NCBI GenBank assembly: GCA_040903985.1
Contig: JBBDUI010000002.1
Coordinates: 454,038-518,037 of the forward strand
DNA from: Candidatus Saccharimonadales bacterium
GTDB taxonomy: Bacteria; Patescibacteriota; Saccharimonadia; QS-5-54-17
Length of the DNA: 64,000 bases
Direction of reading: 5' to 3'
Position 1 is the first letter of the stretch. Each line of letters opens with the position of its first letter. The notes beneath the pieces are model-generated. The model was given only the letters and a program-made list of their open reading frames with translations. It was not told the origin of the DNA and made no database searches. Both the position numbers and the translations under genes were made by a program. Shown here in pieces: positions 52,996 to 63,055 of this stretch.

Positions 52996-53598
52996 TCAGT
53001 CAGTTTTATCGGCAAAGACGACTAGCCGGTCCGCGTAGGTTTGGCCCTGTTCATTCCAGGCGCCAGTGCAGGTAATAAGGTTTAGGTGTTGACCAGCTTT
53101 GCTACGAAATACTTCATCAGGTCGGTCATCTTGGGCGTAGGTCTTGATTTTCATGACAGTGAAATGTACGTTCTGGCCCTGTTCGTCTACCACTGAGAAG
53201 TGTTCACCGATCTGCAGCTTATGTAGATTAGCAAATACACCAGGTGTCTTCAGTCCGCCTACGTGACCGGCGATGACAGCGTTGCCCTCATCCCCAGGAT
53301 GCGAGCCGTACTGGTACCAGCCTGCATCTGAGAGCTTCTCGGGTGCCTCCATGTCGCCATCGCTAGTCAGTCCGACGTGTGCTATATCGGCATCTATACT
53401 GAGAGTCGGGATTAGGAGGCGGGTAGGTTTGCTGTGAATGACTCCAGGTGACTCCATTATAGCTTCGGTCTCAGGAGGGATATCGAGACTTACTGCCGAA
53501 GCGGGCGGGTTATCGCTGCTAAGCAGTGTACTCAGTACAGCGATTCCGACTACCAGCCCTACCAGTAAAATACGCTTCAATTTTACCGGCTTCTTCAT
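52996..53598 (-). CDS. sortase family transpeptidase (class E/F-like)
   Basis: N-terminal TM, a conserved His (VIAGHVGG), and the active-site motif LNLITCTG. Confidence 0.75.
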   Translation of the reverse strand: MKKPVKLKRILLVGLVVGIAVLSTLLSSDNPPASAVSLDIPPETEAIMESPGVIHSKPTRLLIPTLSIDADIAHVGLTSDGDMEAPEKLSDAGWYQYGSHPGDEGNAVIAGHVGGLKTPGVFANLHKLQIGEHFSVVDEQGQNVHFTVMKIKTYAQDDRPDEVFRSKAGQHLNLITCTGAWNEQGQTYADRLVVFADKTD

Positions 53599-53609: not shown

Positions 53610-54450
53610 TTAGCGGTTAGTAAGGCGGTCTGACTTGTGAACAGCGTAACCAACTACTGCTAGCACGAAGAATATGGCCAGTAAATTCACGGCTGTTGTC
53701 TCGTCAGTCTCTGCGGTAATGCTAGTGTCCGGTAATCCCGGTGTAGCCGATGCATCAGCAGTAGCTGTACATGTCGGCCCAGTGATGGTGTTGCTGTCTA
53801 AGGTGATTTCGGCGGTACCATCAAGTGCGCGGCCATCGAGTGTGGCACCGGTGGCGAAAGTTATGCTAGTACTAGCCAGAACGTTGCCGACAAACTCAGT
53901 ACCTGCGTCAAATGTAGCGCTGCTGACCACACGCCACCAGACGTTACACGCTTGACCGCCGCCGGTAAAGACGATGTTAGCGGTACTTCCAGTGGTCACC
54001 AAGCTGCTGGCTGATTTGAAGATCCAGACGTCGGTAGCCGCACCGTTGAGGGTAAGGGTTCCAGTAAGCTCAAAAGCATCGGCACAGTAGACACCCGCTA
54101 CCAAGTTCTCTCCGACCAAATCCTTGGTACCGGCATAGGTGGTATCACAGGTCTGTGAGCCGAGGGCAGTAAAGGCTGCACCACGGTCGGCTTGAGCAGA
54201 AAGAGCCGTGCCATTAGCATCGTGAACTGTACCGCCCAAGGTGACGCTGCCGAAACCAGTGGTATGAGGGGCTGATGCCGACATTACCACTGATAGTAGT
54301 GGGTCCGGTATTGGTGACCTCAGAGCCGGCTAGTATGGAGAAGCTAGCGGCTGTTCCGAGTCCTGGTGAAGTGGCAGCTTGGGCGACTGGGACTAGAGTA
54401 ACGAACGTTAATATTATCGAAGCGATACTGAGTTTCAAAAGAGCTTTCAT
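53610..54450 (-). pseudogene. ice-binding-like (DUF3494) surface protein with LPDTS + TM + basic tail sorting signal, split by a frameshift at a G4/C4 run near 54267-54270
   Basis: ORF 54214-54450 carries a signal peptide plus AASFSILAGSEVTNTGPTTISGNVGISP. ORF 53610-54290 continues HTTGFGSVTLGGTVHDANG... in another frame. Deleting one C from CCCC restores GNVGISPHTTGFG. The C-terminus is LPDTS...LLAIFFVLAVVGYAVHKSDR. Confidence 0.5.
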
Positions 54451-54623: not shown

Positions 54624-55139
54624 CTACTGCTCTTTAATGAGCTTGACTGCCGCCCTACAAGTACTATCAAGCCTATCTAGAATGGGTACATTAGGACAGT
54701 CCTGGGAGAAGCGCCTACGAATGTACCTTTCGTTACCAAAACCTTTTTCAATTCCTACTACTAGGTTAATCCCGTCTCTCTCATGCTTGAGCTTAGCCTC
54801 AGCTAGTTCAAACCTTGATGTTTGAGCGTAAGCTCTAGAAAATCCTCTCTCATCTGGATCTCCGGCTTCGGCCTGACATGCCAGCCAAAACATTACTGCG
54901 CCAGTTTTAGCTGCGCGTTTAAGGTATTCCGTCTCCCAGTCGACTTGTTTTTCGTATACAAACGTACCTTCTGGGTATTCTCTTCTCGGCGAAGCAATAG
55001 TAATCCCGGATGTAATACCACTAATGATATCAATGGCTTTCTCCTGCCAATCTTCTGCGCCTTGTATCGGTCCGGCTAGGAATAGAACGGGAGTCTCAGT
55101 ATTTACGATCTCAGGCGGTTTGATTACTTCTGTAGCCAT
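54624..55139 (-). CDS. hypothetical protein, possibly nucleoside 2-deoxyribosyltransferase-like fold (start moved to M12)
   Basis: PVLFLAGPIQGAEDW and a later T..FELAEA resemble the NDT/Rcl family G-rich loop and catalytic Glu region. Weak. Confidence 0.3.
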   Translation of the reverse strand: MATEVIKPPEIVNTETPVLFLAGPIQGAEDWQEKAIDIISGITSGITIASPRREYPEGTFVYEKQVDWETEYLKRAAKTGAVMFWLACQAEAGDPDERGFSRAYAQTSRFELAEAKLKHERDGINLVVGIEKGFGNERYIRRRFSQDCPNVPILDRLDSTCRAAVKLIKEQ

Positions 55140-55300
55140 TAAACTGAGTATAGCAAAGAGGTAGCTATACATAGATAAGATTCGGTCTAGGAACCGGGTC
55201 TTCGGTGATAAGTGTCCAACTTGGTAGACGCGATTGTATTCGAACTTTGTTCGCTAGCGGCCTAATATAGGCAATCTGCACTTAAGGGTTAGCGATAGGG

Positions 55301-55957
55301 ATGGGTCTAGAACTGTATAATAGTAGCATGATAAAAGTGTCATATGTAGAAATCAGCCAGAAAGATAAGAGCCGCATAGAGGTGGCTCTGCCAATATGGC
55401 TACAAGAGGTGAGAGAACTCCTGCCACAGGTACCTGAAGTTATAGAAGTCATCTTCGATAATCAATATCTTATCAAGATTACCGGTACGGGTGGATTTGC
55501 CTTAGATAAGGATAAGATCGCACTAGCATTTGACCCTGCTTTCACTAACAAGAATTTACAGTTCAATAATCTGCGCGGAAGCTTCTATCATGAGTGCTTC
55601 CACTTAGTACAAGGCTGGGTGGGTGGAGTAGCCGGAGGCGAGATATCGGCTATCGAGGATGCTTTAATGGAAGGTTCGGCCACTGTTTTCGAGCGGGAAC
55701 GTACAGGTACAAAGCCGCCTTGGAGCGACTATTCCGATATAAAGAATATAGATGAGAAGTTGGCTACGATTAAAGAGTTAGGAGCTAACTATGATTGGCA
55801 GAAGTGGAAGTTCTATGACCCCGAGACTAATACACGTTGGATACTGTATAAAGTAGGTGTTTACCTTACCGAGAAAATCTTGGATAATAACCCAGAATTA
55901 ACTATTGAGGATGTAGCTGGCATGAAGGTTGCGGGTATGCTTGATGCTGCCGATTGA
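55301..55957 (+). CDS. predicted Zn-dependent metallopeptidase (HExxH; DUF2268-like)
   Basis: FYHECFHLVQG contains HExxH with a downstream Glu (MEGSA). Confidence 0.4.
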   Translation: MGLELYNSSMIKVSYVEISQKDKSRIEVALPIWLQEVRELLPQVPEVIEVIFDNQYLIKITGTGGFALDKDKIALAFDPAFTNKNLQFNNLRGSFYHECFHLVQGWVGGVAGGEISAIEDALMEGSATVFERERTGTKPPWSDYSDIKNIDEKLATIKELGANYDWQKWKFYDPETNTRWILYKVGVYLTEKILDNNPELTIEDVAGMKVAGMLDAAD

Positions 55958-55983
55958 TCCATTTCTTTATGTATACTTAACCC

Positions 55984-56444
55984 ATGAATAATCTAGATGA
56001 TTACGCCGTAGATTTATACGAAAACTATGAAGCTGGAGTTCGGAAGCTGGCCGAACTAGTTGCTAACAAGAAAGTGGTCGGTGTGGGCGAATCGACGCAT
56101 GGAACTCATGAATTCTTCCAGCTCAAAGCTGATTTGTTTGTGGAGCTTCACCAAAAACAAACCTGGCTAGCTAACAACATTTATGGGAGAATTGCTTCAT
56201 GGGTCACTATGCTAGCGAAATGGATCCAAATTGGGGAGAACCGACAGCTTCTGAGAGCAAGCTCGCAGAGGTACCGGAAGAAATCAGGGAGTTGGCGCAG
56301 TGCCTTTTTAGGGGGTTTGATAGCATGGCGCATTTGGACTCAATCAATGCAGAGCACGGTATCAGAGTTGCCGCTGCCATCGATGCGCTTGTACAGAAAA
56401 GGATAGTTGAAGCTCTAGCGCAAACTACGAAAGCTCACGATTAG
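55984..56444 (+). pseudogene. short gene remnant in two frames; N-terminal part resembles the start of erythromycin-esterase-like (Ere/ChaN-type) proteins
   Basis: VVGVGESTHGTHEFF resembles the VVALGE.SH motif. The reading frame shifts near 56199, and the combined length is far shorter than family members. Confidence 0.25.
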
Positions 56445-57354: not shown

Positions 57355-58548
57355 TTACAGTATAATATCTCGACCATCTTTGCCTTTGATGGGGTAGGAG
57401 CTCTTTTCTTTGTTTGTCTGGCTACTTGTTTGCTTTGATTTCAAATTCTTGCTCTTCATAACTAATTTCTTGATGTCTTCTTCGTTCTCGTAAGCCCGGA
57501 CTCTTCCGCTTAAATAGCCGAGTCTATAAGTGATGCCGTCACTAGTTAGCCGCCAGTTGGTATCATTAAGTGCTTTATTGACTAGCTTCTTCAAGGTTTT
57601 CCTGCTGTCATAGTCATCTCGGTCGTTCTTGCCGTCTAAACAGCTAAATCCAATAAAGACATCACGTCCCATTTCGGGTTTATCTAGACTAAATTCAATG
57701 TATCCGGCTTTTTCTAAGACTGGGCTTAGTATTTCGGATAGCTCCGGAATCTTTAACTTTTTGATTTGAGCCACAGCATCATAAATGTGCTTATTATCTT
57801 CTTTTTCTTTAAGTTCTTTGTCGAGTTGCACCATACCTTCTAATCTGTGCTTAGCATCGATGTGTTCTTGACGAACCTTTTCGTCCAAGAGACAGAAAGC
57901 TCTGCGGTCGTCTTCAAAATCTGGGTCTGGCTTCTCTTTTTTACGAATCAGATCCAACTTATCTTGATAACTGTGCTGACATTTAGGGCAGCTGTACTTA
58001 GTTTTGATAGCAGTTTTCAGACGAGTAGTCCTTTCTTCCATAATTGCTTTGCATTTAGGGCAGTAGGTGTGCCGGCGCTCCCATTCGGCTCCGTCTTCCC
58101 AAAAGGCACTGTTTTTATCGCAGTGCGGGCACTTGAGCATGAATAGCACTTCTTCGGGATCATCGTACTTATAGTCTTCTCCACGATTCATCAGGGTTTT
58201 ATCAATAATCCGTAGGCCTTGCTTGCCACAGTGCTGGCAATTTGGTTCAACTGATAGCCGGGAAGAACTGATTTGTAAGTCTTTTGCTTCATCTTCCGCT
58301 ATCCACTTGGCGATTGTCTCGTCACGCTTGTAGTAGCGATCAACAAGAGCGTTGCCAACCACCATCATATAGATCCAATTCAAGTGGAACGTGCTACGAA
58401 ATGAGTCTGGTTTTTCATCCGGCATGATTTTGAACCATTCATCGCGGAATTGAAGAAAGTACTTAAAGTCTCGGCGAGCAAAATCAACAGTTATCCGATC
58501 ATAGCGGTCTTCATATTCTTTAAATTTTTTAGGATGCGCATAGTCCAT
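57355..58548 (-). CDS. hypothetical protein with two predicted zinc ribbons (four CxxC pairs)
   Basis: CQHCG...CPHCD and CPKCK...CPKCQ, each pair spaced about 25 residues apart. Lys/Glu-rich, and no enzymatic motif is recognised. Confidence 0.45.
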   Translation of the reverse strand: MDYAHPKKFKEYEDRYDRITVDFARRDFKYFLQFRDEWFKIMPDEKPDSFRSTFHLNWIYMMVVGNALVDRYYKRDETIAKWIAEDEAKDLQISSSRLSVEPNCQHCGKQGLRIIDKTLMNRGEDYKYDDPEEVLFMLKCPHCDKNSAFWEDGAEWERRHTYCPKCKAIMEERTTRLKTAIKTKYSCPKCQHSYQDKLDLIRKKEKPDPDFEDDRRAFCLLDEKVRQEHIDAKHRLEGMVQLDKELKEKEDNKHIYDAVAQIKKLKIPELSEILSPVLEKAGYIEFSLDKPEMGRDVFIGFSCLDGKNDRDDYDSRKTLKKLVNKALNDTNWRLTSDGITYRLGYLSGRVRAYENEEDIKKLVMKSKNLKSKQTSSQTNKEKSSYPIKGKDGRDIIL

Positions 58549-58569: not shown

Positions 58570-59589
58570 TTACTCTGCTTCAATGAGGGGCTTATACCAT
58601 TTTGCCAAAGCTTCAAAGCTCGCAAAAGTCTGCGGTACCGGATTGTTGGATATAAACTTGGCTTCCCAATACTGGTTCCAATACGCCTCAATTGATCGCC
58701 GAGGATGTTTGGCAATAAATGAATCATAAAAACTATCCAGTATGTCGTAATGGTGCGTATGAATAAAAGGCTCCCAGGTTTCTCGGAGTTTGTCTTGATC
58801 TGCTCCGGGCCGGTTAATAATTTCGGTTTGTTCCATCGCCCTGTCGTTGTTATCGCCCCAGCCTTTCTTTAGCAAATCAATGGCTTCTTTGTCGGTAGTG
58901 GGAGCGCTATACCCGAAAGCTGTAAATATAAAACAACCCTTAAAATAAAACCGAGCTGCCTCCCACTCACGTTTAATAAAACTATCTGACTGATAGTCTT
59001 TGTTCTCAACCGGATAGAGCAACTTGGAAGGCTTAAATGGCTTGCGACACCGACTACATGGTAGACCGGCAATACCGCTAGTGTTATGTTTCTCGCAGAA
59101 ACCTACAGTCACGTTTCCATGTAAGAAGAATAGTTTCGGGAAGCTTGTGGTAATACCAAGTTTAGCTAGCCGGATTCGGGATTGCATCAAAAATGGGTCC
59201 CAGTTGAAGGTAAAGATCGCATCTTTATCACGCAAAGACAGGTTTATGATGTCGTACAGGTTGGGCTTATCAGGTAGCTCAAGCTCCGAAAAATATTCAC
59301 GTACCAATGAATCAATACTACTTAAACTATCCGATGAGCCCAGGTTGAAGAGTTGTGAGTAAGCAGCCTCAAAATCTTGCGTAGCCAATTCTTTTAGGTT
59401 ATTAGGAAACAAGTCTACAAGTTTCAAATTTTCTGCCACATCGCGAAGTAGCGGTACCGGCCGTCCATTCCTATCGCCATTAGGTAGAGCGGCTTTGCTT
59501 GCTCCGGCACCGAGTAGAAGTATGTGTGGTTTTCCGTGGAACGGATTAGCAATTTCTTGCTGAACACTAACTTCGTTATCTGATGTCAT
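58570..59589 (-). CDS. SIR2-like domain protein (SIR2_2/DUF4020-type, defence-associated NADase-like)
   Basis: HILLLGAGASKA (GAGxS), IFTFNWDPF (compare the TTNYD motif), and FFLHGN (conserved His). 4-nt overlap with the upstream ImmA gene. Confidence 0.7.
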   Translation of the reverse strand: MTSDNEVSVQQEIANPFHGKPHILLLGAGASKAALPNGDRNGRPVPLLRDVAENLKLVDLFPNNLKELATQDFEAAYSQLFNLGSSDSLSSIDSLVREYFSELELPDKPNLYDIINLSLRDKDAIFTFNWDPFLMQSRIRLAKLGITTSFPKLFFLHGNVTVGFCEKHNTSGIAGLPCSRCRKPFKPSKLLYPVENKDYQSDSFIKREWEAARFYFKGCFIFTAFGYSAPTTDKEAIDLLKKGWGDNNDRAMEQTEIINRPGADQDKLRETWEPFIHTHHYDILDSFYDSFIAKHPRRSIEAYWNQYWEAKFISNNPVPQTFASFEALAKWYKPLIEAE

Positions 59590-60098
59590 AGCTTGTTCAA
59601 CAACCCCGTACTAGTAATGCGCCACCAAAAAGCTTCTTCACTTACCGCTAAGTGCTTAATCAAGCCAGCAGTATCGCCACGAAATTTCTTGATGTCTTCC
59701 TTTATCAAATTTAGTGGCATTATTAGTTCAGCAGCAAACGCATTAGCTTCAACTTCAGGCACCCTAGAATCATCGAAGTCAATTGAAGCTCCGGAATGGA
59801 CATGCCCCATATAGAGATGCCCGAATTCGTGTGCAACAGAAAACTTCTGCCGATTGACAGAAGTTTTTTTATTAAAGGCGATATCGATATCTTGACCGTC
59901 TTTATGTGCAATTGCGTAAACAGTACTAGGTAGTTTATCGGTTCCGTAAAATCTTATCCCAGGATGATCTTTTGTGATTACACCAACCAGATCGTTAATT
60001 TTAATTGGTGTCGCAATAATACCAGCACGCTTAATAAGTTGTCGGGCGGAGTTGTGACAACCGCTTATTCGGGCTTTGTTTTTAAATTCCTCCTCCAT
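59586..60098 (-). CDS. ImmA/IrrE-family zinc metallopeptidase (COG2856)
   Basis: HEFGHLYMGH is an HExxH motif in a protein of about 170 aa. It directly follows an XRE HTH gene. Confidence 0.75.
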   Translation of the reverse strand: MEEEFKNKARISGCHNSARQLIKRAGIIATPIKINDLVGVITKDHPGIRFYGTDKLPSTVYAIAHKDGQDIDIAFNKKTSVNRQKFSVAHEFGHLYMGHVHSGASIDFDDSRVPEVEANAFAAELIMPLNLIKEDIKKFRGDTAGLIKHLAVSEEAFWWRITSTGLLNKL

Positions 60099-60434
60099 TC
60101 ACTTTTTCCTCTGGCTTTTCATCCATTCTATATAATTCATAACACCCTTCACGTCTTCTTCGCTAAGGTCTTCATCTGCGCGAAGCGCGATACTGACATC
60201 CTTGTGCTCAGATGCAACCTCGCCATCCAGTAAATAGCCAATTGTCACCGATAACTTTCTACCAATCTCCTCTAATTCGTTGATTTGAACTCGACGTTCA
60301 CCGGATTCTATCAGCGATATAGCAGTACTAGATTTGTAGCCAACAGCTTCTGCAAGCTGTTGTTGTGTGAGTCCGACTCTAATACGAGCATCTCTTATTC
60401 GACCGCCGATTTTTTTATAGCGATTACTATCCAT
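60099..60434 (-). CDS. XRE-family helix-turn-helix transcriptional regulator
   Basis: RIRDARIRVGLTQQQLAEAVGYKSSTAISLIESGERRVQINEL is a canonical HTH_XRE. Confidence 0.8.
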   Translation of the reverse strand: MDSNRYKKIGGRIRDARIRVGLTQQQLAEAVGYKSSTAISLIESGERRVQINELEEIGRKLSVTIGYLLDGEVASEHKDVSIALRADEDLSEEDVKGVMNYIEWMKSQRKK

Positions 60435-60559
60435 GACTACCTCTTTTACGTATCTAAATGATAACTTAGGCGTGACTATTTGACAAACAATTTACGATTT
60501 TGATAAACTAATAATTACTAATAGTAAACCGCCCATTAGGGTAGCAGGAGGGATTTAAA

Positions 60560-60799
60560 ATGGCCAAGAAGAATGTCCATATTACCTACAGTAAAGACTC
60601 CAAAGACTGGGGAGTAAAAAGTCAAGGCGCGCATCGCGCTGCCAGCCGACACCAAACAAAGGCCGAAGCCACACAAGCTGGTCGTGAAATAGCCCGCAAC
60701 AACAAAGGTGAGCTTTTCATACACAATAAGGACAATAAAATATCGGACCGTGACAGTTACGGCAATGACCCGTTTCCACCGCGCGATAGAAAGCATTAG
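60560..60799 (+). CDS. DUF2188-family small protein
   Basis: VHI...DWGVK..GA.RA.S.H.TKAEA..AGREIA.N...EL.IH..D..I...DSYGNDP.PP matches DUF2188 spacing. Confidence 0.55.
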   Translation: MAKKNVHITYSKDSKDWGVKSQGAHRAASRHQTKAEATQAGREIARNNKGELFIHNKDNKISDRDSYGNDPFPPRDRKH

Positions 60800-60811
60800 G
60801 AGGCAGCTATT

Positions 60812-61729
60812 ATGCTCATCATAAAAAAGAGATGGATTCGTTCACTAAACAATAACCTACCCGGCGACCTTAGAGGTGGTGTCGTTAATATCGCTGTTAA
60901 GCTTGAATCTAACGAAAATGTTGCTCAAAAAATTGGCTTCGGGAAGAATCCGAAGATTGGTGACACACTCACACCTAAGCCGGTCGGTCCAGCCACTCGT
61001 TTTAACGCTCATGGTAGAGAAAAAATCTTACGAAACCGAGAAAAAGAGAAACTATATCGCACCCAAGAATGGACACGCGAGGAGTGGGCGGGTCGTGGCC
61101 AGACACGAACGGTAACTTCACTAGTGGATATTCCATATTACCGTTATCCTCGTGAGCACATTGATGGTTTTGATTTAGAGCTAACTATCAGAGAGTTTAA
61201 CGGACAGAAGCACATAGTATTAACTGAAGGTATTCGCTGGGATGACGGCAGCACAGAGAAGCTGATAACTGCCATCAATATCTTTTTAGAGGTGTTTGGA
61301 CAGGCAGAAATTCTAAATGAATCTCTAGAAGAAATCCCAAGTCCGGCTGAAATTCGCCGACTTAACTGGATTGTGCTTCCTAAGGGCGAAAAAATTACGC
61401 AAGAATCGTTGGATGAAATCTTGTCGAAGTCTAGACGCATTCGACCAGTACAAATGCTACGCCAGGAGCGCATTAGTTCATTTAATCCCGACATCCGTGC
61501 CATCGGCATGGGCGGCTTCACTGGCTATGTTGTCTATGTCTTCAAAAAGAAAGGAATCGCGGTCATGGAGAGTGTTAAGTATGGTAACGCCAGCTACATT
61601 ATCGCAGCCGACAATTGGGAGAAACTCTCCAAGATGACAAAACAGCAACTTCTGTCAAAAAGCCTAGTGCAGTCGCGTGAAACTCACACTAAAAAATGGT
61701 TTGCCCGCATCAAAAAGCTACTGGCTTAG
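60812..61729 (+). CDS. hypothetical protein (305 aa)
   Basis: ORF. No recognisable motif. Confidence 0.4.
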   Translation: MLIIKKRWIRSLNNNLPGDLRGGVVNIAVKLESNENVAQKIGFGKNPKIGDTLTPKPVGPATRFNAHGREKILRNREKEKLYRTQEWTREEWAGRGQTRTVTSLVDIPYYRYPREHIDGFDLELTIREFNGQKHIVLTEGIRWDDGSTEKLITAINIFLEVFGQAEILNESLEEIPSPAEIRRLNWIVLPKGEKITQESLDEILSKSRRIRPVQMLRQERISSFNPDIRAIGMGGFTGYVVYVFKKKGIAVMESVKYGNASYIIAADNWEKLSKMTKQQLLSKSLVQSRETHTKKWFARIKKLLA

Positions 61730-61923: not shown

Positions 61924-62796
61924 CTAAACTAGGTCTCTGAAAAAGTTAATAATACTCTTCGTGTTCGACCACGCAAGACTGTAGTCAATAGCAAGAAGAC
62001 CAGCGACAGCTATCAAGGCACCAAATAAGCTCTTCACCTTGTGGTTTTCCATGAACCTGTAAATTTTCTTAGTACCAGTGGCAACAAGCCAAAAAGGGTT
62101 TGTGTAATGCCAGACATTCACGTCATTCTTTGTAATGTTTCGAGGTTGATTCTTTTGTAACTCTGCGAGCTTGATAAGCTCGTTAGCTGATTTTAGGTTT
62201 AATTCGATTGCTTTTCCAAATCCTTGACACTCTATATGCGGTGGAACTTGCATGCCTTGATATATAGCTTTTGAATCCCGCGATACGACCTGGCTAGGCG
62301 AACGCGCTTTTATATAGTCACCGATTGAAAAATCCACGTCTATATCATCAATTTTTTTCTTTAAAACATCATTACCAATAACTAACTCTAGTTGGATTTT
62401 CAGGTTACGCATTAACTCCTTCAAGGCTTCTAATTTATCGTTGGCCTCGTCAATGTCGAACCTTTTTGATGCATTACTTATGATATGTTGCCACATTTCA
62501 TCAAGAGTTTTTGTCTGCCAACCAGGATCGTAGCCGTCATTGAACACCCCAGCGCCACCCCATTCCGGATCAAACATCTGGCTTGTATTCGGGACTTCAT
62601 ATTCTTTGAAGTATAAATTCGCATGATAACCAGCCCAGGATCCAGACCAAGATTCATGGAGTCGATTGCATGTCTTTATTGTGTCTTTCGATACCATCGC
62701 TAAATACTCTTTCTCGCTTTGGAGAAAGTCTCTCAAGTTATCTAGTGCCGCATCGAGGCCCTGATTAGTTTTAGCTTTTTGAAATAAACTCTTCAT
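61924..62796 (-). CDS. hypothetical protein with C-terminal TM helix (start moved to MKSLFQ)
   Basis: ORF. Soluble N-terminal domain of about 260 aa, then SLFGALIAVAGLLAIDYSLAW. Confidence 0.4.
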   Translation of the reverse strand: MKSLFQKAKTNQGLDAALDNLRDFLQSEKEYLAMVSKDTIKTCNRLHESWSGSWAGYHANLYFKEYEVPNTSQMFDPEWGGAGVFNDGYDPGWQTKTLDEMWQHIISNASKRFDIDEANDKLEALKELMRNLKIQLELVIGNDVLKKKIDDIDVDFSIGDYIKARSPSQVVSRDSKAIYQGMQVPPHIECQGFGKAIELNLKSANELIKLAELQKNQPRNITKNDVNVWHYTNPFWLVATGTKKIYRFMENHKVKSLFGALIAVAGLLAIDYSLAWSNTKSIINFFRDLV

Positions 62797-62980
62797 ACAA
62801 TAAATATAACAGAGAAACAAACAAGATCTTACAACGATCACGGAACCCGGTCAGAAAATTTATCGTCCAGTCGCTATAGAAGGACAGGTCATACAGGGGT
62901 TAGCGTAAAAATTACAGATGTGCTTATAAAGCAACAAGACCAGGTCATGGAACCCGGTCTTGATCAGATTGTGTACTACT

Positions 62981-63055
62981 TGGTAGCGGGGGCAGGATTC
63001 GAACCTGCGACCTCCGGGTTATGAGCCCGACGAGCTGCCACTGCTCTACCCCGCG
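62981..63055 (-). tRNA. tRNA-Met (CAU) with initiator-like features
   Basis: Reverse complement is CGCGGGGTAGAGC...GGGCTCATAACCCGG...GGTTCGAATCC...CCCCGCTACCA. It has an unpaired 1:72 (C.U) pair and three consecutive G:C pairs at the anticodon-stem/loop junction. Confidence 0.75.

Follow-up and report, generated by a model that had tools for sequence, protein, structure and literature searches.

The subject of this work is a gene (positions 58570-59589) from a Candidatus Saccharimonadales bacterium, found in a stretch of 64,000 nucleotides (nt) that was analysed as a whole (positions 454,038 to 518,037 of contig JBBDUI010000002.1, assembly GCA_040903985.1; hereafter the window). Its product, a protein of 339 amino acids (aa), has the fold and the catalytic motifs of a sirtuin and belongs to a large family that has so far gone unannotated, and the gene itself is a horizontally mobile single-gene unit. 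A preliminary description, made from the letters of the window alone, had called the product a stand-alone SIR2-like protein on the strength of an N-terminal GAGAS, a TFNWD motif and a conserved His. The open reading frame (ORF), which the ORF listing places on the minus strand, is not a chance reading frame, since 4432 sequences are homologous to its product at E<=1e-3, down to 3.5e-207 for the best match. An identical protein is on record at NCBI as MEX0748871.1, 'hypothetical protein WD467_02770', from a 747-kb contig of a Candidatus Saccharimonadales metagenome-assembled genome (MAG).

Existing sequence models did not reveal the protein to be a sirtuin. The preliminary description had proposed a check against the SIR2_2 hidden Markov models (HMMs), and there nothing was found: no Pfam family, PF02146 and PF13289 included, matched the protein at E<=10 (the HMMER filters drop most very weak matches), no PADLOC family matched it at E<=0.1, NCBIfam gave no match, and phmmer detected no matching chain among the PDB sequences. 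When the family profile was compared with the PDB sequences, a nitrite reductase appeared at E 0.32 and was discarded as spurious. The absence of Pfam and PADLOC matches implies that, as far as sequence models go, this is not a SIR2_2 sirtuin of the ThsA or DSR type.

The assignment to the sirtuins comes from the structure, from profile comparison and from conservation. An AlphaFold2 model built on 30 homologues reached a mean pLDDT of 89.5 and a pTM of 0.89, and its comparison against the PDB using Foldseek gave 22 matches at E<=1e-3, all 22 of them sirtuins, the next hit being at E 0.045. Among these matches were CobB of E. coli (2e-7), Sir2Af of Archaeoglobus, Sir2A of Plasmodium (PfSir2A), human SIRT6 and Sir2 of Thermotoga (Sir2Tm), and chains of ThsA appeared as hits 19, 21 and 22 (E 3e-5 to 3e-4). 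The query TM-scores were modest (0.35-0.46), which fits a divergent core carrying family-specific additions; the highest were those of ThsA (0.44-0.46), compared with 0.37-0.39 for CobB, and identity in the structural alignments to canonical sirtuins was about 12%. In the viral structure library BFVD, the three best structural matches were also Sir2 proteins.

Profile alignments were made with hhalign against Sir2Tm, using a reference sequence identical to PDB 1yc5/2h4f. An alignment of 30 sequences paired PNLYD with PNLAH, TFNWD with TQNID, FLHGNV with ELHGNV, Cys165 with Cys124, and C178xxC181 with C148xxC151. The family alignment of 137 sequences scored 42.4 (E 1.6e-5, probability 79%), while 150 shuffles of Sir2Tm scored 14.6 +/- 2.6, with a maximum of 21.9. 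A relaxed alignment was colinear from LLGAGAS/TLTGAGIS through FGYSAP/VLGSSLVVYP and EIIN/VIVN, the last Rossmann strands. In all three alignments His157 was placed on the catalytic His116 of Sir2Tm (ELHGN). The TFNWD segment was shifted in the alignment made with the deeper profile; its register against TQNID is therefore taken from the 30-sequence alignment and from the strand-then-motif geometry of the model, where a beta strand at residues 124-127 leads into the motif as it does in sirtuins.

The three motifs picked out in the preliminary description proved to be homologous to the catalytic motifs of sirtuins and to be conserved in the relatives. GAGAS occupies residues 27-31, within LLLGAGASKAALPNGD of the translation; TFNWD occupies residues 127-131 in the context IFTFNWDPF, where the raw sequence reads ACCTTCAACTGGGAC; and the conserved His is His157 of FLHGN (FFLHGNV), confirmed on the raw sequence. 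Gly27, Gly29, Asn129, Asp131, His157 and Gly158 were invariant in 137 of 137 relatives. Together, the Foldseek matches, the profile comparison and this conservation establish that the 339-aa protein has the fold and the catalytic motifs of a sirtuin. The coordinates of these motifs and of the surrounding features are collected in Table 1.

Table 1. Location of the sirtuin gene, its motifs and the neighbouring features, in positions of the window
Feature	Coordinates	Strand	Remarks
Sirtuin-fold protein, 339 aa	58570..59589	(-)	ATG ORF ending in the stop codon 58570-58572; the family is large and unannotated
GAGAS, Rossmann glycine loop	59497..59511	(-)	Aligns with GAGIS of Sir2Tm; Gly27 and Gly29 in 137/137
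TFNWD, counterpart of TQNID	59197..59211	(-)	Asn129 and Asp131 in 137/137
His157 (FLHGN), counterpart of His116 of Sir2Tm	59119..59121	(-)	His157 and Gly158 in 137/137
Putative zinc-ribbon-like module, Cys165/His168/Cys178/Cys181	59047..59097	(-)	Aligns with C124xxC127...C148xxC151 of Sir2Tm
Family-specific C-terminal extension, about residues 265-339	58573..58797	(-)	W272, HxHH (277-280), HPRR (295-298) and E301 conserved
Zn397, 397 aa, four invariant CxxC pairs	57355..58548	(-)	21 nt downstream of the sirtuin gene
Orphan ORF p223, 223 aa	56667..57338	(-)	Final gene of the cluster on this strand; 16 nt from Zn397
ImmA/IrrE-type Zn metallopeptidase, 170 aa, HEFGH	59586..60098	(-)	Pfam Peptidase_M78 1.9e-14; NCBI name ImmA/IrrE family; peptidase domain only
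XRE-type helix-turn-helix (HTH) repressor candidate, 111 aa, CapH/ImmR-like	60099..60434	(-)	Pfam HTH_3 3.6e-10; stop abuts the ImmA start
Putative divergent control region	60435..60559	both	Promoter-like sites 60486..60458 (-) and 60480..60509 (+), each 10/12
DUF2188 protein	60560..60799	(+)	Pfam DUF2188 1.5e-20; PADLOC PDC-S16 4.4e-30; divergent from the HTH and ImmA genes
Orphan ORF after DUF2188, 305 aa	60812..61729	(+)	No match in Pfam, PADLOC or NCBIfam

Directly after the catalytic His157, a zinc-ribbon-like module is predicted, in which the AlphaFold2 model places short beta strands at residues 162-165 and 170-173. Three of its putative zinc ligands are kept in most of the 137 relatives (Cys165 in 126, Cys178 in 127 and Cys181 in 126), and position 168, the equivalent of C127 in Sir2Tm, is Asp in 59, His in 41, Cys in 16 and Glu in 6. 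Beyond the last Rossmann strand lies an extension of about 75 residues that Sir2Tm lacks, hhalign giving no confident alignment there, and that is conserved within the family (R297 in 132 relatives, R298 in 129, W272 in 132 and H280 in 121). Many charged residues counted as invariant lie outside the NAD site (E74, D113, D123, R140, K197, Y199, R297 and R298). The 339 aa are made up of a sirtuin core and this extension, in agreement with the earlier statement that there is no fused sensor domain; ten longer family members, with extra termini of 100-200 aa, had no Pfam domain in those extensions. Judged from alignment and model, the family would represent a distinct clade of the SIR2 superfamily, with a Rossmann core, a helical insert, a zinc-ribbon module of Cys3 plus Asp or His, and a clade-specific extension. 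It is a clade of sirtuins, hence not categorically new, but one unannotated so far and with a hybrid set of features; we found no paper describing it.

The hybrid character becomes clear when the protein is set beside the known sirtuins. With the canonical ones (PF02146: CobB, Sir2Af1/2 and Sir2Tm) it shares the motifs GAGxS, PNxx(H/D), TxNxD and HG, and the same order of domains, that is, the Rossmann core followed by the helical insert and the zinc module. It differs from them in the cofactor loop (GAGAS-KAALPNGD in place of GAGIS-xxSGIPDFR), in the second zinc ligand, which is Asp or His in most members, in about 90 extra residues that include the conserved C-terminal extension, and in its patchy, mobile occurrence, as opposed to the housekeeping distribution of the canonical deacylases. 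With the SIR2_2 sirtuins of defence systems (ThsA, DSR1/DSR2, SIR2-HerA/Nezha, SPARSA and Avs5) it has in common the sirtuin fold, the conserved Asn and His, and a location on plasmids, on prophage-like contigs and beside restriction-modification, CRISPR or SLATT genes; a role as a NAD-consuming effector is likely to be shared as well. However, the SIR2_2 proteins, including ThsA and FAM118, lack the zinc module, which canonical sirtuins require for deacetylation and which was proposed to have arisen alongside the shift from NADase to deacylase activity (PMC12700824). Furthermore, the protein studied here has no SLOG, STAND, pAgo, HerA, large sensor domain or constant partner, and its conservation appears high for a defence gene.

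Among sirtuins that work without a partner, the closest precedent in function is sole-Sir2, a small, single-gene and transcriptionally controlled sirtuin supervised by CRISPR (CRISIS), which has NADase activity and a close homologue of which protects against T2 and T4 (bioRxiv 10.1101/2024.12.27.630466). Compared by description only, sole-Sir2 has about 440 aa, with a distinct N-terminal region and a C-terminal DSR2-like Sir2 domain, whereas the protein described here has 339 aa, a Sir2 core that begins at residue 20, the predicted zinc module and the C-terminal extension. FAM118A/B and SirTM are, according to PMC12700824, stand-alone sirtuins of about 300-350 aa that process NAD or ADP-ribosylate and fall outside classes I-IV. 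FAM118 is of the SIR2_2 type without the zinc module (PMC12700824), unlike the protein here, and the genes of SirTM are coupled to a macrodomain gene (PMC9503650), a coupling that is not seen in our case.

The family is large, widespread and sparse. It comprises about 4,400 sequence clusters at E<=1e-3, and an exhaustive search of representatives at the 50% identity level matched 1291 clusters, 409 with E<=1e-30. With one genome taken per species, the gene was present in 574 of 185,579 species (about 0.3%), scattered over Saccharibacteria and other Patescibacteria, Chloroflexota, Actinomycetes, many Proteobacteria, Acidobacteriota, Planctomycetota, Methanolinea and an Odinarchaeote; cultured hosts include strains of Legionella, Vibrio, Aeromonas and Simiduia, among them Vibrio coralliilyticus with the homologue WP_040122577.1, Aeromonas rivuli DSM 22539 and Simiduia litorea KMM 9504. 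Its members are uniform, with about 340 aa and an identity of 43-50% between phyla, and they are called 'hypothetical' in every source that gives them a name.

This occurrence reflects horizontal transfer. A homologue on a complete chromosome of Ktedonobacterales is 76% identical to the Saccharimonadales protein, which implies a recent transfer across phyla. The gene is also carried by nine plasmids, on all of which it is labelled 'hypothetical protein'. On the conjugative plasmid pLPL of Legionella pneumophila Lens (55406-56383 of the record) the homologue WP_011212644.1, 43% identical, is flanked by umuD/umuC with an SOS-response peptidase and by a type I-F CRISPR-Cas locus, and on pOCN014 of Vibrio coralliilyticus the gene is located between SLATT/ATPase genes, 'mobile mystery proteins' and McrBC. 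It was detected in 16 of 2.9 million IMG/VR contigs, in some of them beside large serine recombinases, lambda-like NinG/Q or tail genes. A phage origin was considered and rejected, as 50,697 GenBank phage records contained no match. A phage clade of 'RNA-repair sirtuins' has been described (PMC9503650).

In the window, the gene lies in an island of low GC content (39-45% versus 50-54% in the background and about 51% in the genome) that runs from about 54.3 to 63.0 kb and ends at a tRNA-Met (62981-63055), one of only three tRNAs, and no other RNA family, that Rfam identified in the window. A search for att sites revealed no convincing direct repeat of the tRNA-Met end within 51-64 kb, and no integrase-like ORF was present among the island ORFs scanned; the island may extend past the end of the window. 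The same island holds a nucleoside 2-deoxyribosyltransferase-like gene (54624-55172, minus strand), a DUF2268 protease-like gene (55301-55957, plus strand) and an orphan ORF of 305 aa with a hydrophobic C-terminal segment (61924-62841, minus strand), for which Pfam, PADLOC and NCBIfam gave no family match. Two overlapping plus-strand ORFs in different frames at the island edge (55984-56406 and 56199-56444), with no Pfam match, may represent a frameshifted or decayed gene. An Ice_binding gene (PF11999) at 53610-54450 on the minus strand is likewise split into two overlapping ORFs in different frames, one (54214-54450) encoding the signal peptide and profile positions 1-24 and the other (53610-54290) positions 30-208; it reflects a frameshift, a pseudogene or an error of the MAG assembly, and a sortase gene (52996-53598) lies just downstream.

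The sirtuin gene is the third of a cluster transcribed from the same strand, which reads HTH repressor, ImmA-type protease, sirtuin, Zn397 and p223. The plus-strand tcat at 59586-59589 corresponds to ATGA on the minus strand, so that the sirtuin ATG and the ImmA TGA overlap, as the preliminary description had reported, by 4 nt. The HTH protein matched the PADLOC model capH (4.2e-11) over positions 2-100 of 103, and the peptidase matched capP (3.1e-19) over positions 7-136 of 242 only. Since the C-terminal half of the capP model is missing, this 170-aa peptidase is ImmA-like rather than a full CapP; its size matches that of the ImmA of ICEBs1. Judged by length, the missing half would be the one that holds the GAF domain and the cysteine switch, the regions through which CapP senses single-stranded DNA in the published CapH/CapP work.

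Divergent from the regulators, DUF2188 heads a second operon (60560-61729, plus strand). The intervening region has back-to-back promoter-like sites whose -35 boxes overlap, the number of such sites being no higher than in shuffled sequences, and a perfect 6-1-6 palindrome, TTACTA-A-TAGTAA (60516-60528), placed between the DUF2188 -10 box and the ribosome-binding site, which is a candidate operator. The pair of an XRE HTH protein and an M78 peptidase with HExxH, side by side, is that of the CapH/CapP and ImmR/ImmA switches. In the systems described by Lau et al., capH/capP precede the operon that they control and are read from the opposite strand, and DUF2188 is part of some of these operons. 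The divergent DUF2188 operon fits this layout, which leaves the sirtuin gene, downstream on the regulators' own strand, as one co-transcribed with the regulator genes and not as a textbook target. The overlap with immA noted in the preliminary description stands, but its link to the regulator module needs revision, as targets of the CapH/CapP type lie on the opposite strand. A parallel is offered by ICEBs1, an integrative and conjugative element (ICE) in which int is co-transcribed with immR-immA; unlike ICEBs1, the island ORFs scanned here included no genes for an integrase or for excision. The arrangement is also comparable to that of lambda, where rexAB is co-transcribed with cI.

In the loci of close relatives the regulator is of another kind. 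A gene encoding a LexA-like Peptidase_S24 protein lies 0-23 bp upstream of the sirtuin gene, in the same orientation, in five Saccharibacteria loci with 76-89% identity (L008, L009, L011, L012 and L022), and an S24 gene is nearby in L042, L023 and L197 as well, giving a total of 7 of 80 genome loci plus L197. With S24 in the closest relatives and HTH plus ImmA in the window, two kinds of cleavable repressor head the same gene; the S24 link is confined to Patescibacteria loci. In L008, L009 and L011, DUF2188 and the S24 regulator are transcribed divergently, like DUF2188 and HTH/ImmA in the window. In L011 (equal to L001, a sister locus with 78% identity), DUF2188 heads an operon (3099-5162 of L001) of Multi_ubiq, ThiF/DUF6791 E1-like and BubE genes, a ubiquitination-like system of the Bub type, divergent from S24 and with a type I restriction-modification system beside it.

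Apart from these regulators, the neighbourhood of the family is variable. All-against-all clustering of the ORFs within 4 kb of 81 distinct sirtuin loci, which yielded mostly antisense shadow ORFs, revealed no constant partner; genuine recurrence was seen for the S24 regulator in 8 loci, for Zn397 in 7 and for DUF2188 in 4, and for nothing else. By Pfam and PADLOC counts no family dominated among 79 putative operon partners, which include type IIG/Eco57I/MmeI enzymes, Mrr, fusions of SF1 helicase and restriction endonuclease, AbiEii-like AAA proteins, UvrA, DUF2779, T5orf172/MUG113 (twice) and ABC ATPases; the UvrA gene overlaps the sirtuin homologue by 4 nt in L087. SLOG, TIR, STAND and Argonaute domains had no match in Pfam or PADLOC among the neighbouring ORFs, in accordance with the preliminary description, and no SLOG/TIR ThsB, HerA, pAgo-APAZ, STAND or DSR C-terminal solenoid partner recurred in 80 loci. 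The term stand-alone thus holds in the sense that there is no constant partner, and it does not hold strictly, given the repressor directly upstream in the closest relatives and the adjacent Zn397 in several loci. The signal of a defence island appears real, but not strong. A T5orf172/MUG113 (GIY-YIG-like) gene is located 5-18 bp downstream of the homologue in L015 (9026-9712) and L194 (9050-9727), whose sirtuins are 63-64% identical to ours, and may be a second occasional partner.

Zn397, encoded next to the sirtuin gene, has four invariant CxxC pairs (C104/107, C140/143, C163/166 and C187/190). It is directly downstream of the sirtuin gene in the window and in L009, L011 and L012; in L018, a gammaproteobacterial MAG, a Zn397 of 29% identity is directly upstream, with an overlap of 8 nt, and in L086 and L042 homologues lie 0.7-3.7 kb away. 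Its AlphaFold2 model (pLDDT 77.7) combines a long hairpin of helices with a zinc-ribbon region rich in beta structure, further helices and a small C-terminal domain of the alpha/beta type; it had no significant fold match in the PDB, only a weak S24e/S6-like one for the C-terminal domain (E about 0.01). The Zn397 family has about 580 clusters, mostly from Saccharibacteria and of about 395 aa. None of the 80 metagenome Zn397 loci, nor those of three further look-ups of Zn397 context, carries the sirtuin gene, and about 74 of the 81 sirtuin loci are without Zn397. On these counts Zn397 was rejected as an obligate partner, such a pair being unlikely, although the two genes, reversed and overlapping in L018, may still be linked in function. 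In the 80 metagenome loci Zn397 is the 3'-terminal gene of cassettes on a single strand, in which the genes ahead of it are hypervariable (57 singleton neighbour clusters) and which are often headed by a LexA-like S24 gene that is either adjacent to Zn397 or separated from it by cargo. The cargo includes a cyclic-oligonucleotide-based anti-phage signalling system (CBASS; SMODS, AGS_C and SLATT), genes of type I, II and IIG restriction-modification, and Macro, RadC, LmuA-like, DUF2130 and metallo-beta-lactamase-fold genes. These data suggest a variable slot for cargo between the repressor and Zn397, with the sirtuin as one possible occupant, and the Zn397 cassettes look like an undescribed slot for defence cargo. 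The last gene of our cluster, p223, had no match in Pfam, PADLOC or NCBIfam, no homologue in any fetched locus, and formed a single-member cluster, with no homologue beyond itself, in a collection of 15 billion proteins.

The reading that we tentatively favour, plausible though short of probable, is that the protein is a catalytically intact member of a new sirtuin clade and acts as a mobile effector that cleaves NAD+, gated by a repressor switch of the DNA-damage type and perhaps also by its own C-terminal extension. In its favour are the fold, the profile match and the invariant catalytic residues, the mobility, the regulator genes directly upstream, the defence cargo that takes the equivalent position ahead of Zn397 in other genomes, and the precedent of sole-Sir2. 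The repressor would keep the back-to-back promoters low until a signal linked to DNA damage or to a phage activates the protease or, in the sister loci, leads the LexA-like S24 repressor to cleave itself, and transcription through the cluster would then rise. The sirtuin would cleave NAD+ at the nicotinamide-ribose bond, either hydrolysing it, with depletion of NAD, or transferring ADP-ribose to a target, and the infected or damaged cell would be arrested. If the repressor is negatively autoregulated, its cleavage may raise the expression of the sirtuin; otherwise the sirtuin might be present at the basal level of the repressed state.

Several observations weigh against this reading. For a defence gene, the family is unusually conserved, with 43-50% identity across phyla and dozens of invariant residues, and it keeps the zinc module, which has been tied to protein deacylation rather than to NADase activity (PMC12700824). 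Few of the 79 putative operon partners are known defence proteins, and in L195, L197 and L006 the surroundings are of the housekeeping type without a defence gene; settings of this kind are inside a suf cluster, between an MFS transporter and an SDR gene, and beside purine genes (one locus each). The ImmA protein is without the C-terminal half of the capP model, the predicted place of the GAF domain, and the published CapH/CapP systems regulate a divergent operon and not genes downstream of capP.

The main alternative, a possible one, is that the sirtuin modifies macromolecules instead of depleting NAD, as a deacylase or as an ADP-ribosyltransferase of proteins or nucleic acids, within a response of the SOS type, the zinc module and the extension forming the substrate site. 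The zinc module is retained (Cys4 in 16 of 137 relatives, Cys3 plus Asp or His in most), the Foldseek E-values favour CobB and Sir2Af (2e-7) over ThsA (3e-5), conservation is very high, with many invariant charged residues outside the NAD site, DNA-damage genes recur nearby (the LexA-like S24 genes, umuDC and the SOS-response peptidase on pLPL, UvrA in L087), and some loci lie in housekeeping surroundings. For a repair gene, however, it would be unusual to occur in only about 0.3% of species and to be so clearly transferred horizontally; the neighbours clustered and scanned included no conserved partner of the substrate-like or macrodomain kind, the Foldseek TM-scores rank ThsA above CobB, and the LexA link is restricted to Patescibacteria loci.

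It seems unlikely that the sirtuin acts here as the effector of a two-component system, in which Zn397, possibly with p223, is the sensor or adaptor. Both families are small relative to the database, and their repeated adjacency, direct in four loci, reversed and overlapping in L018 in spite of the low identity of its Zn397, and at a distance in two more, would hardly be expected by chance. On the other hand, Zn397 lacks the sirtuin in all the Zn397 loci inspected and the sirtuin lacks Zn397 in most of its own, Zn397 follows highly variable cargo, as a generic component of a cassette or hotspot would, and p223 has no homologue at all in the fetched loci or in the 15-billion-protein collection. 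We consider distinctly unlikely a broader proposal, namely that the family stands, in evolution and in function, between the canonical zinc-bearing sirtuins and the NAD-destroying sirtuins of defence, mobile and wired to the SOS response, and that it would ADP-ribosylate DNA, RNA or a core protein as a conserved target and not simply use up NAD+; in Patescibacteria it would be part of a hitherto undescribed, exchangeable cassette of cleavable repressor, variable effector and Zn397, with Zn397 as the common nucleic-acid-binding sensor or adaptor for many effectors.

It is very unlikely that the gene works for its mobile carrier element and not for the defence of the host, as a factor of counter-defence or competition that would consume NAD-derived immune signals or modify host factors, for example. 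Its presence on plasmids of the conjugative or mobilizable type and, beside recombinases, on viral contigs that resemble prophages would agree with such a role, as would its co-transcription with a repressor-type gene in the manner of the 'lysogeny' genes of prophages and ICEs (immR-immA of ICEBs1), but it is absent from the GenBank phage records and found in only 16 of the IMG/VR contigs, most copies are chromosomal, the neighbours scanned included no integrase or relaxase, and no match to an anti-defence family was found. Finally, we give next to no credence to coincidental motifs or to a degenerate, inactive Rossmann-fold relic, an idea that the lack of any SIR2/SIR2_2 HMM, NCBIfam, PADLOC or PDB sequence match might have encouraged, as it is contradicted by the fold and profile evidence, by catalytic residues that are absolutely invariant in 137 relatives and by strong purifying selection across phyla.

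In summary, our results suggest a variable slot for defence cargo in Saccharibacteria, next to a conserved multi-zinc-ribbon protein; to our knowledge, the immune repertoire of these bacteria has not been described. If the favoured reading is true, it would be an example of an effector without a partner that is made safe by a repressor-protease or a LexA-like switch. An HMM of the family, built from the alignment, would re-annotate thousands of 'hypothetical proteins', and the pLPL homologue, from a cultured pathogen, offers a convenient experimental entry point. The family may also combine the zinc module of the deacylating sirtuins with the mobile, conflict-type genomic behaviour of the NADase sirtuins, a combination that, if true, would bear on the idea that links the origin of the zinc module to the shift from NADase to deacylase (PMC12700824). 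Furthermore, should the biochemistry be confirmed, a large clade, missed by all the annotation libraries searched, would be added to the sirtuins.

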